Of a stretch of 64,000 bases of DNA, positions 3,739 through 8,064 are shown in pieces. This DNA comes from Bdellovibrionota bacterium. GTDB lineage: Bacteria; Bdellovibrionota_C; UBA2361; JAFLCA01. The stretch lies in NCBI GenBank assembly GCA_041907145.1, contig JAYRHW010000132.1, positions 431 through 64,430 on the forward strand, written 5' to 3'. Each line of letters begins with the position of its first letter. The first letter of the stretch is position 1. The notes under the pieces were generated by a model. That model did no database searches. It had not been told where the DNA came from and saw only the letters and a program-made list of their open reading frames with translations. A program made the translations under genes and the position numbers.

Positions 3739-4530
3739 ATGGCTGAGTTCAAGGGCCACCCCGCCACGCCCAAACGTCTGGAGAAAGCCAGGCGCGATGG
3801 GCAGAGGCTCAAATCACCATTAATAACTCAATTATTTTGCCTGGTTAGCCTCATATGCTCAGCCCATCTGACTAGCCGGTCAACTTGGGTAAAGAATAGA
3901 ATGTTGTTACAATATTGCTGGTCAGATGGTTACCGCGAGCCGGCTGTATGTGCCGTCGGGCTGGGGCAGCAGTTGTTTGCAATAGTTGTCTTCAGTTTGA
4001 TCTTTGGATCACTTGTTTCGATAATCGCAGAATCCCTGCAAGTTGGAATTCGTTTCAACGTGACATTGATCGCGCCGCGAATCTCTCGCCTCCATGTGGG
4101 GAACGGTCTAAAGAGGATTGCCCAGGGGCTGAAGGGTTCTTGGCAACTTGCGCTGCGCCTATGGTTGTTCTCGCTCGTTTTGTTCTGGTTTTCCCCTGAC
4201 ATAGTACGCCTCGGTGTCTCGGTATGGAACATCGAGAGTGAATGGCGGCTTTGGTATATCGCCAGAAGTCTCGCGAGCTTGCTGATGGTCACCGCCAGCG
4301 TCGCGAGTATCTGTGCGGTTATTGATTACACGGCTCGGCGCCATGAGTATTTCCGCGAGTTAAGCATGTCCACGACCGAGATACGCCAGGAACATCGCGA
4401 TGACGAAGGCGACCCCCAGATCAGGGCACAGCGGCAGGCGCTTTTTCGATCGATGTCCTATGCTGAGATTGTAAAACGTGCACGAGAGTCGAAGGTAATA
4501 ATCGTGGAAAGAGCTGAGCAACGAGAGTAG
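3739..4530 (+). CDS. sctU: SctU/FlhB family export switch protein, N-terminal transmembrane part plus CN linker only; terminates just before the NPTH autocleavage motif
   Basis: MAEFKGHPATPKRLEKARRDGQRLKS matches the FlhB/YscU N terminus. Four TM segments. ELSMSTTEIRQEHRDDEGDPQIRAQRQALFRSM aligns with the FlhB linker (MTKQEIKDEHKQSEGDPHVKGRIRQ..). The ORF ends ...SKVIIVERAEQRE, i.e. at the position of ..ADVIVTNPTH in FlhB. Confidence 0.75.
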   Translation: MAEFKGHPATPKRLEKARRDGQRLKSPLITQLFCLVSLICSAHLTSRSTWVKNRMLLQYCWSDGYREPAVCAVGLGQQLFAIVVFSLIFGSLVSIIAESLQVGIRFNVTLIAPRISRLHVGNGLKRIAQGLKGSWQLALRLWLFSLVLFWFSPDIVRLGVSVWNIESEWRLWYIARSLASLLMVTASVASICAVIDYTARRHEYFRELSMSTTEIRQEHRDDEGDPQIRAQRQALFRSMSYAEIVKRARESKVIIVERAEQRE

Positions 4531-4534
4531 CGAA

Positions 4535-7500: not shown

Positions 7501-7744
7501 AGTTCTTGTCATTACAACGAAGCCGCAGGATGCCGCGGCAGCATTTTCCGACCTTCAGGAGGTGGCAATCGTTGGCGAGCCGGTGAGTCTATGGTCCGTG
7601 CAGGCTGCCATCAAGCGCCTCGTTCATGGGAAGCAGGCTGGTTCCGGATTGGTCCGCAGTGTTCAGGTCGAGGGAAGAGGAAGCGACGCGCGCAAGGAGC
7701 TTGCGCCGGTGCGAGACCCATCCCGGAATCGAGAGACGCTATGA
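4535..7744 (+). CDS. Multi-domain hybrid sensor histidine kinase (GAF/PAS/GAF/GAF-HisKA-HATPase_c plus C-terminal receiver-like domain), encoded inside the split sctU
   Basis: 1069 aa. H-box GVAHNFNNMLQAVMGQASL. ATP-binding G-boxes DNGAGMD and GLGLSSAYSIIKGHEGSITVSS. Central PAS-like and GAF-like segments. C-terminal ~130 aa resembles a receiver (LVLEDQ, VLVITT), but the conserved Lys is not evident. Starts 4 nt after the sctU N-part stop. Its TGA overlaps the ATG of the next gene (ATGA). Confidence 0.8.
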   Translation: MAARNCKDVIDDLRRSLSAVEAPQQLADTLAEQLSDSFGKAIIHVVLSMSSDRIEAWHGIPPNVTAQHSLRVDGDQARLGALAVPFPVFVSDPRRARLDPELARYIDRIGARSYAAVALYRSGRLSGWIECWYQLEHRTWTREDSALLQQCADVAGLALEGRIAPELPAAESPNPQLVAEIDDLKARYERIIAYGNLIMVRTNPEFELVDVRGDTMSVLGVSAETLLNDRTVWSRFVHSPDFRALNRKVRRMRDRPEELNEEIRVLNQQSQQVRWLLLRSVPLFNAGGEFLGWEGFGLDITDRREAREELLGQSKRVEALYEVARALQVNLDPALVTLRGLRALITATSSDCGFTCFYDPEQKALELVSSEGLSPHYVEDFSRLLGGPTLVRLAVDRKEGLLSNNIQRDPRAAVDIARREGLKSTIIMPLMLKDEVQGAIVLFCRKANRYSEADFDLVSAAASQICLAVRQAESYLAEKRQVSALGVLYRLSHELSKQMTPREIAEHAFPIIQSELSCKRMWLGVLNEQGTLLLGQAGTGPGVRRPLIDLQIEIGEQNDFLSQALSRKQPVIVRPAQQQECERLQRLTQRLNLGMFVIVPLVSLGQTVGILLVEPTLPSGFMIQRKLSLLSSMGAEIATVILARRFESKLADAEKMRMAGLLASGVAHNFNNMLQAVMGQASLIEMQLGKDSPLVGSARMIIEAAGKGAGLIKQLLSFALPGAESRTVISPQELFAESGELYRSILGSSIVLDVRIDDGLPEVHADYSKMQQVITNLLMNAKEAIGDRRDGLVKLTARAVRLASGEVDPELAPGSYLRIDVSDNGAGMDAERQSRCFEPFFTTKNVDVRTGLGFEGSGLGLSSAYSIIKGHEGSITVSSTLGEGTNFSIYLPAYQASATKDAEVPAATAAGGILARQAFVFGDALQRNFALISTLESFGIRVVPCSSSESFFQQAARDSWTMLVLEDQFGAESSAPLVHEVRAKFPDVRVLVITTKPQDAAAAFSDLQEVAIVGEPVSLWSVQAAIKRLVHGKQAGSGLVRSVQVEGRGSDARKELAPVRDPSRNRETL

Positions 7745-8064
7745 GGAGCCTTCGACAGACAATGTCCGGCGGGACAATTCCCGGCCGATGCGCGCCGGAT
7801 CGGAATTCAGCAAACGTCTTCAAGTCGGCCGTGGGATTGGCATATTCTCCGGACGGCGGGCAATCCCCGCATGTGGCTATCAAGGGATCCCTGATGGGGG
7901 CTGATGAAATTGTGCGCCTTGCTCGTCGCTTTGGCGTGCCCATTGTCGAGCAGCGGGGCCTCTGCACGGCACTTGCTCGTCTTGAGCTCGATGCGCATAT
8001 TCCTCCCAGCCTCTTCGAGGCTGTAGCGATTATTCTCGCGCGCCTTCAGCGGAAAGGTAGCTAG
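7741..8064 (+). CDS. Stand-alone SctU/FlhB C-terminal (CC) domain protein, equivalent to the post-NPTH fragment
   Basis: SPHVAIKGSLMGADEIVRLARRFGVPIVEQRGLCTALARLELDAHIPPSLFEAVAIILARL aligns with FlhB PTHYAVAL...APKVVAKGAGLVALRIRE..VPVLEAPPLARALY..EIGQQIP.QLYAAVAEVLAWV. I place the start at ATG 7741, overlapping the kinase stop; the listed ORF 7591 is only the upstream open frame. Confidence 0.65.
   Translation: MRSLRQTMSGGTIPGRCAPDRNSANVFKSAVGLAYSPDGGQSPHVAIKGSLMGADEIVRLARRFGVPIVEQRGLCTALARLELDAHIPPSLFEAVAIILARLQRKGS

Follow-up and report, generated by a model that had tools for sequence, protein, structure and literature searches.

An SctU/FlhB-family export-switch gene in two parts, with a sensor histidine kinase gene between them, in a clade of uncultured Bdellovibrionota

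The window analysed here is a 64,000-nucleotide stretch of contig JAYRHW010000132.1 (positions 431 to 64,430; assembly GCA_041907145.1) from a Bdellovibrionota bacterium. Its + strand carries a tight gene row, recognised from the list of open reading frames (ORFs) and from Pfam and NCBIfam matches, that includes sctR-sctS-sctT-sctU(N)-kinase-sctU(C) and resembles part of a secretion system of type III (T3SS). The switch gene sctU, a member of the flhB family, is present as two ORFs, the N-part and the C-part, which are complementary, non-overlapping halves of one family profile, far beyond chance. The switch gene adjoins sctR, sctS and sctT. Its two modules sit on two polypeptides, with their ORFs 3.2 kb apart, and the same was found in all relatives. 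The explanation that we favour, with a probability of about 70%, is an ancient and fixed fission of sctU in the self-cleavage loop, which would have given a constitutively 'pre-cleaved' switch with the kinase gene fixed between the halves. The features of the split gene are:

3739..4530, + strand: sctU N-part, 263 aa, with four transmembrane (TM) helices, the FlhB-CN linker and strand beta1 (Bac_export_2)
4492..4509, + strand: terminal beta1 motif K252-V-I-I-V-E257 of the N-part, the counterpart of FlhB 'DVIVTN', conserved in cluster representatives
4535..7744, + strand: histidine kinase of 1069 aa, probably soluble, with GAF-PAS-GAF-GAF domains and a receiver-like C-terminus (Pfam GAF_2, GAF, PAS_4, HATPase_c)
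7741..8064, + strand: sctU C-part (FlhB-CC or FlhX-like domain), 107 aa, or 100 aa if read from ATG 7762 (Bac_export_2)

The N-part matched positions 3-256 of the 335 in the Pfam profile Bac_export_2 (PF01312; E 4.4e-37) and the C-part positions 260-333 (E 1.4e-13). This profile search, which an earlier sequence-only reading of the same DNA had proposed for both ORFs, places the two halves in the SctU/FlhB family. The best NCBIfam model for the N-part was SctU (TIGR01404), in which the alignment ended at position 259 of 341. The N-part scored 115 bits against this model (cutoff 358) and 94.5 bits against the FlhB model TIGR00328 (cutoff 349), and in 11/11 loci compared its score was slightly higher against SctU than against FlhB. 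The corresponding scores of the C-part were 46.7 and 39.3 bits. That both ORFs fall below these equivalog cutoffs is expected, because each is half a protein. The C-part also matched FlhB-C in the PDB (3b1s_B, E 2e-7). An AF2 model of the N-part, made from a 64-sequence alignment, had a pLDDT of 93, with residues 251-263 as unpaired coil, and its sole significant Foldseek match in the PDB was FlhB in the FliPQR-FlhB complex (6s3l_K, probability 1.00, TM 0.73). The AF2 model of the C-part, made from seven homologues, had a pLDDT of 54 and was too poor for a fold search.

Canonical SctU/FlhB proteins cut themselves between the N and the PTH of an NPTH motif, after which beta1 still completes the sheet of the other fragment. 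In Salmonella FlhB we take the scissile bond to be that between N269 and P270. By phmmer alignment to PDB sequences, residue 255 of the N-part, which lies in K-V-I-I-V, is matched to residue 267 of FlhB, which precedes this bond by two residues, and residue 29 of the C-part is matched to FlhB residue 273. The N-part ends with beta1 and a 6-residue tail (ERAEQRE), and the C-part begins with a 24-residue non-conserved extension, followed by N25-V-F-K28 and strand beta2 (SAVGLAY). At the position of NPTH stand N25-V-F-K28 in the C-part (as aligned with 5cul) and E257-R-A-E in the N-part tail. The sequence-only reading had put the split at the autocleavage site, which is correct to within a few residues (FlhB 267-273), and had taken an SPHV in the C-part for a degenerate NPTH, which is wrong, since SPHV aligns with the downstream 'AP.VV' of the next strand.

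NPTH was absent from the window proteins, from 150 N-part cluster representatives and from 34 C-parts. Among the 150 representatives the last conserved N-part block was R-x-[SA]-[KR]-V(94%)-[IV]-[VI]-V(92%)-E(66%)-[RK]; the beta1 motif was present in 125 of them, and the protein ended 1-13 residues later in all but two. Few blocks of the N-part are conserved as highly as this terminal motif, although it has no partner to pair with inside that protein. The simplest account of its strict retention at a free end would be a continued pairing with the CC-domain sheet. Conservation of the C-part starts at an aromatic residue in the position of the T of PTH, in the pattern [RK]-Y-x-x-A-[VFI]-[AG]-L-x-[YF]. 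The tails at the junction vary in length and sequence and have no conserved docking motif.

The order sctR-sctS-sctT-sctU(N)-kinase-sctU(C) was found in about 38 independent assemblies, mostly metagenome-assembled genomes of Bdellovibrionota/Oligoflexia, at 30-50% protein identity. The sole word-index homologue of the N-part beyond the window's own record was a 251-aa protein with 32% identity on six JGI metagenome contigs, in which the genes run FliP-FliQ-FliR-FlhB(N), GAF/PAS kinase (1079 aa), FlhB(C) (115 aa) and FHA; the cluster proteins of these contigs are 30-48% identical to those of the window. Three more contigs with the same layout, one of them with an extra minus-strand gene before the C-part, were found through kinase orthologues. 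A scan of GTDB species representatives gave about 35 further loci, labelled mostly Bdellovibrionota, Bdellovibrionales or Oligoflexia and some 'Deltaproteobacteria' or 'Dadabacteria'. The loci of relatives that were compared with the window carry L-numbers (L001, L038 etc.). By ORF and profile analysis, an N-part of 245-289 aa was located directly upstream of the kinase in 35/35 loci having upstream sequence, and a C-part downstream of it in 34/36. In the two exceptional loci the sequence goes on downstream for only 1-2 kb, and one of them, L029, groups clearly by its N-tail sequence with loci whose C-part comes 2.5-3.4 kb later, past inserted genes. No full-length sctU was found in any locus compared. 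The kinase between the halves, for which a synteny comparison had been suggested, is thus shared by dozens of independent assemblies.

An exhaustive profile search with the N-part, covering 1.84 billion cluster representatives, gave 158 clusters (50% identity) at E<=1e-30, of which the best 150 were all 172-290 aa long. Pairwise dN/dS lay at 0.15-0.27 in comparisons of N-parts, at 0.07-0.14 in those of C-parts and at 0.03-0.04 in those of kinases; selection on all three genes is, by these ratios, purifying. The cluster is embedded among housekeeping and lipopolysaccharide-core genes, and this conserved synteny indicates vertical inheritance. In one subclade (L019, L021, L022 around 13100-16500, and one JGI contig) we noticed lineage-specific genes between kinase and C-part; those of L022 comprise a minus-strand gene of 327 aa and a gene for a membrane protein of 184 aa. 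A further variant was seen in the AT-rich, more distant relative L044 (2482-8719). There the gene behind R-S-T-U(N) encodes a GAF kinase of 1050 aa that has no receiver, and after it come genes for another FliR-like membrane protein (7255-8013) and for another FlhB-N-like protein, truncated and very divergent (8015-8719, E 6.5e-5); within 15 kb, L044 showed no C-part.

In the window, the TAG of the N-part (4528-4530) is separated by a 4-nt gap from the kinase ATG at 4535, and the stop codon of the kinase (TGA, 7742-7744) and the start codon of the C-part (ATG, 7741-7743) overlap as ATGA; the ORFs and junctions are as they had been read from the sequence at first. The start of the C-part is ambiguous between ATG 7741 and ATG 7762, the latter giving the 100-aa NCBI record, and both lie upstream of the homologous region. 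Overlaps of start and stop codons or gaps of a few nucleotides are common across species at both kinase borders, and N-part, kinase and C-part apparently form a translationally coupled operon. A promoter and terminator scan of 1-11200 gave counts equal to the shuffled expectation and was uninformative on operon structure. The other genes of the cluster are:

419..838, + strand: conserved 139-aa protein of unassigned function, first gene of the cluster; no Pfam match; orthologues upstream of the cluster in L007-L009, L011, L012, L032, L038 and L039
868..1230, + strand: weak SctI-like (inner rod) gene; sub-threshold matches to Pfam T3SS_basalb_I (E 7e-4, gathering score not reached) and to TIGR02497 (E 1.5e-3, under the cutoff); position kept in relatives
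1237..2070, + strand: probable FliK/SctP-like ruler or type III secretion substrate specificity switch (T3S4) protein; window copy without Pfam match, PF02120 Flg_hook in 7/19 positional orthologues
2067..2738, + strand: sctR/fliP; Pfam FliP E 8e-49; NCBIfam NF009438 EscR/YscR/HrcR 181.2 bits, cutoff 179
2745..3005, + strand: sctS/fliQ; Pfam Bac_export_3 E 1.8e-14
3011..3730, + strand: sctT/fliR; Pfam Bac_export_1 E 1.7e-16
8225..9289, + strand: FHA / YscD-cytoplasmic-domain protein with a membrane anchor only at the C-terminus; Pfam FHA E 1.6e-15; Yop-YscD_cpl 33.9 bits, cutoff 33.2; downstream in many relatives
9325..10734, - strand: divergent receiver-domain protein, 469 aa, candidate partner of the kinase; PleD-type receiver E 2e-8; weak NCBIfam REC/PAS matches

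The evolution and working of the split switch may be depicted as follows. The upstream gene would encode the membrane part that docks on SctRST, together with the cytoplasmic CN linker ending in beta1, and the downstream gene would encode the CC domain from strand beta2. Both polypeptides would reassemble non-covalently, with beta1 of the N-part completing the beta-sheet of the C-part. A constitutively 'pre-cleaved' switch would no longer need the chemistry of NPTH, and the motif has been lost. The gene for the soluble multi-GAF/PAS kinase would have become fixed between the halves, at a site tolerant of interruption, and would be co-transcribed and probably translationally coupled with both of them. 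The weakest step is that the kinase might be a dedicated regulator of the T3SS-like module, possibly acting through the adjacent receiver protein, and not a physical part of the gate. Precedents for two-piece function exist: in Xanthomonas, supplying the C-domain in trans complements an HrcU that lacks residues 265-357, and the same is reported for H. pylori (PMC3040844). FlhX, a stand-alone homologue of FlhB-C, rescues FlhB lacking its C-terminal domain and in part takes over FlhB function.

Several points weigh against a fission that left a working switch under kinase control. In Xanthomonas the NPTH motif is required for binding the T3S4 protein and an early substrate; given the total loss of NPTH, the switch cannot work exactly as the canonical one does, and its partners would be recognised differently. 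We infer the association of N-part and C-part from the conservation of beta1, and the model of the C-part is poor. Genes for SctV, SctN, SctJ, SctC and SctQ were found neither in the 64-kb window nor in the gene tables (<=10 kb on each side) of four relatives. The model TIGR00789 flhB_rel (FlhX type) was the best one for 10/11 C-parts, by a small margin over SctU/FlhB, and by this measure the C-part could be a recruited paralogue instead of a severed half. The kinase is separated from the C-part by other genes in some lineages. As to its direct coupling to the gate, the sequence-only reading had suggested gate activity directly coupled to a two-component sensor, and what speaks for this is conserved gene adjacency, nothing more.

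The presence of a sensor kinase gene, probably of hybrid type, between the halves was itself borne out by the domain analysis. Pfam matches included three GAF domains, a PAS domain and HATPase_c (E 5e-19). The H-box GVAHNFNN is invariant in 11 orthologues, as are H668, N780, D823/G825/G827 and G858/G860 (N, G1 and G2 boxes). NCBIfam alignments of VirA/ArcB type extend to about residue 1030 of the receiver-like C-terminus, which has no PF00072 match; D966 is nearly invariant, and by eye the window has 'VGEP' where the consensus is 'LEKP'. The kinase is probably soluble, as no obvious membrane segment was seen by eye. Its orthologue family comprises about 48 clusters at E<1e-144, followed by a sharp drop to 1e-46, and the orthologues within this limit were found in the sctU-split context only. 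Such strict co-occurrence suggests that the kinase is functionally linked to the SctRSTU module. It is also the most conserved gene of the cluster; between L038 and L039 the kinase is 91% identical and the N-part 51%.

This last observation fits a broader cellular role of the kinase, and a neutral fixation at a permissive site is a serious rival to a regulatory role, although we hold it to be less likely than not. The kinase gene would then have landed in sctU where an interruption was harmless, the protein being cut there anyway, and would have been kept since breakage of the operon is costly, while the kinase regulates something unrelated to secretion. The low dN/dS of the kinase relative to the SctU halves, the variable junction tails without a docking motif and the genes inserted before the C-part in some lineages are all in line with this. 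The N-part-kinase adjacency is, however, unbroken in 35/35 loci, and every kinase orthologue found within the E-value limit stands in this context and nowhere else. Furthermore, the receiver protein is co-conserved beside the cluster in the window's subclade, where it was recognised by sequence match at the equivalent position and orientation in L001, L008-L012, L014 and L020.

A separate origin of the C-part appears unlikely. Under this explanation the N-part would be a gate subunit without a C-domain, and the C-part a soluble regulator of FlhX type, recruited separately as an accessory to a truncated SctU. Apart from the best-model assignments given above, it is favoured by the wide occurrence of stand-alone FlhB-C homologues, which in Pseudomonas are paired with FliK-like genes. 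Against TIGR00789 the C-part of the window scored 57.3 bits and those of ten relatives scored 30-68 bits, far below the trusted cutoff of 117.35, and these NCBIfam scores alone are compatible both with a severed SctU-C and with an FlhX-type paralogue. Fission is favoured by the order N...C in one operon, which it predicts, and the conservation of beta1 at the end of the N-part is sensible only if the pairing with a CC domain persists. As FlhX is able to replace FlhB-CC, the separate origin would in any case converge functionally on the same two-piece switch. The C-part does resemble FlhX (H. pylori HP1575, P. putida PP_4329; TIGR00789) in being a short stand-alone FlhB-CC homologue (about 80-110 aa), and in both FlhX and HrcU-C in trans experiments show that a small protein or separate C-domain serves a C-domain-less FlhB/HrcU. 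FlhX differs in being an accessory 'spare part' beside a full-length, self-cleaving FlhB, whereas here the operon partner is natively truncated and the C-part would be the sole CC domain of the module.

A more far-reaching role of the kinase, as a working part of the switch, is speculative and seems to us somewhat less likely still. The kinase might bind the free beta1 tail or the free C-part and so govern assembly of the SctU cytoplasmic domain, and this control might depend on a ligand sensed by the GAF/PAS domains or on phosphorylation state. If true, gate opening or substrate switching would depend on a signal and not on a ruler or autocleavage, and fission would have been selected to make the assembly step regulatable.

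Finally, an assembly chimera or a recently disrupted pseudogene is hardly credible. The same contig does have suspicious breaks elsewhere, in that accA contains an in-frame TGA and a DEAD/DSHCT helicase is divided between two frames. The identical architecture, however, recurs at 30-50% identity in dozens of assemblies made independently, with different samples and pipelines; purifying selection acts on both halves, and the 150 best family representatives are all truncated at the same point. Both readings were rejected on the comparative data and dN/dS, so that the split stands as a genuine gene layout, as first proposed; in no relative carrying the orthologous kinase was sctU intact. In view of the TGA in accA, reassignment of a stop codon was also weighed as the origin of the split. 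It was rejected, since a TGA follows after only about 12 further codons when the N-part TAG is read through (by eye), and the lengths of other window genes are normal under code 11.

The two irregular genes on the contig are described here in their own right. In accA (34491-35477), an essential gene, the in-frame TGA at 35112-35114 stands exactly where E. coli AccA has Leu, with the frame unchanged beyond it. An error in a base, variation within the population or a genuine nonsense or read-through codon might each account for it. The Ski2/HelY-like helicase (46707-48964) consists of two ORFs in different frames, one with the DEAD domain (46707-47519) and one with Helicase_C/DSHCT (47519-48964), and resembles a frameshift, either an assembly indel or a pseudogene.

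As to the kind of system, SctR passed the cutoff of the injectisome-type subfamily (NF009438). The match to PF02120 Flg_hook (FliK C-terminal) among the orthologues of 1237..2070 was weak, with a best E of 4.8e-4; their C-terminal 90 aa or so are conserved in pattern, and a profile of this FliK-like family searched against the PDB gave only spurious matches to WD40 and designed-repeat proteins. By sequence and position, the gene upstream of sctR may encode the ruler/T3S4 partner of the split switch. In the FHA protein (8225..9289) a hydrophobic stretch at about 331-353 forms the extreme C-terminus, and there is a long low-complexity linker. Anchored only at its extreme C-terminus, this protein is without the periplasmic ring-building part of a true SctD. 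A second FHA-like stretch was seen in it by eye. Two eukaryotic-type Ser/Thr protein kinases are encoded in the window (18013-19386; 36559-38403), and such kinases might provide the cluster's FHA protein with phospho-threonine ligands.

Like canonical SctU/FlhB proteins (YscU, EscU, SpaS, HrcU, FlhB), the split switch has a 4-TM domain with CN linker, a CC domain and the operon partners sctR/S/T, and its end state is likewise two polypeptides with the break between beta1 and beta2. Unlike in these, the break is genetic and not chemical, NPTH occurs in no member, a 3.2-kb kinase gene lies between the halves and the scores are below the equivalog cutoffs. Other core genes of T3SS are known to split or fuse at domain boundaries and still function, such as the rhcC1/rhcC2 secretin, hrcQA/hrcQB and the fused FliR-FlhB (NF009411), but there a different gene is split and none has a signalling gene inside the split. 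The needle-less T3SS* of Myxococcus xanthus, from a predatory 'delta-proteobacterial' lineage, is also derived from a T3SS, in reduced and non-canonical form. The present system is known here from its SctRSTU genes, and no evidence links the two; according to a review, the co-occurrence of T3SS* with the Kil system appears restricted to Cystobacterineae.

In the literature on split or truncated FlhB/SctU and on T3SS in Bdellovibrionota/Oligoflexia, no description of this architecture was found. The sequence-only reading had stated that no such architecture was known, which holds in that no report of a split sctU/flhB was found, and needs qualifying in that the stand-alone FlhB-C (FlhX) and the C-domain in trans were known. 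What appears to be new is the split sctU/flhB and the kinase inside one; split secretin and SctQ genes, fused FliR-FlhB and the C-domain acting in trans were described before. Interest is tempered by these in-trans precedents, by a secretion system that may be incomplete and by the speculative role of the kinase. Annotation pipelines label the halves 'FlhB' or 'EscU/YscU/HrcU family switch protein', which leaves the fission unflagged.

For two decades it has been debated what makes self-cleavage of SctU/FlhB necessary, the candidates being the cleavage event, the freed PTH loop or the two-piece state itself. The clade described here has fixed the two-piece state in its genes and discarded NPTH; it comprises about 35 species-level genomes and, at 50% identity, at least 158 protein clusters. 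It represents a natural experiment in which both pieces and beta1 are under purifying selection, and this argues that the conserved requirement is the two-piece architecture, rather than the chemistry or the sequence of PTH. The split halves are ready-made proteins for heterologous complementation and structural work. If the kinase is functional in this context, it would represent a new way of placing a type III export gate under signal control.

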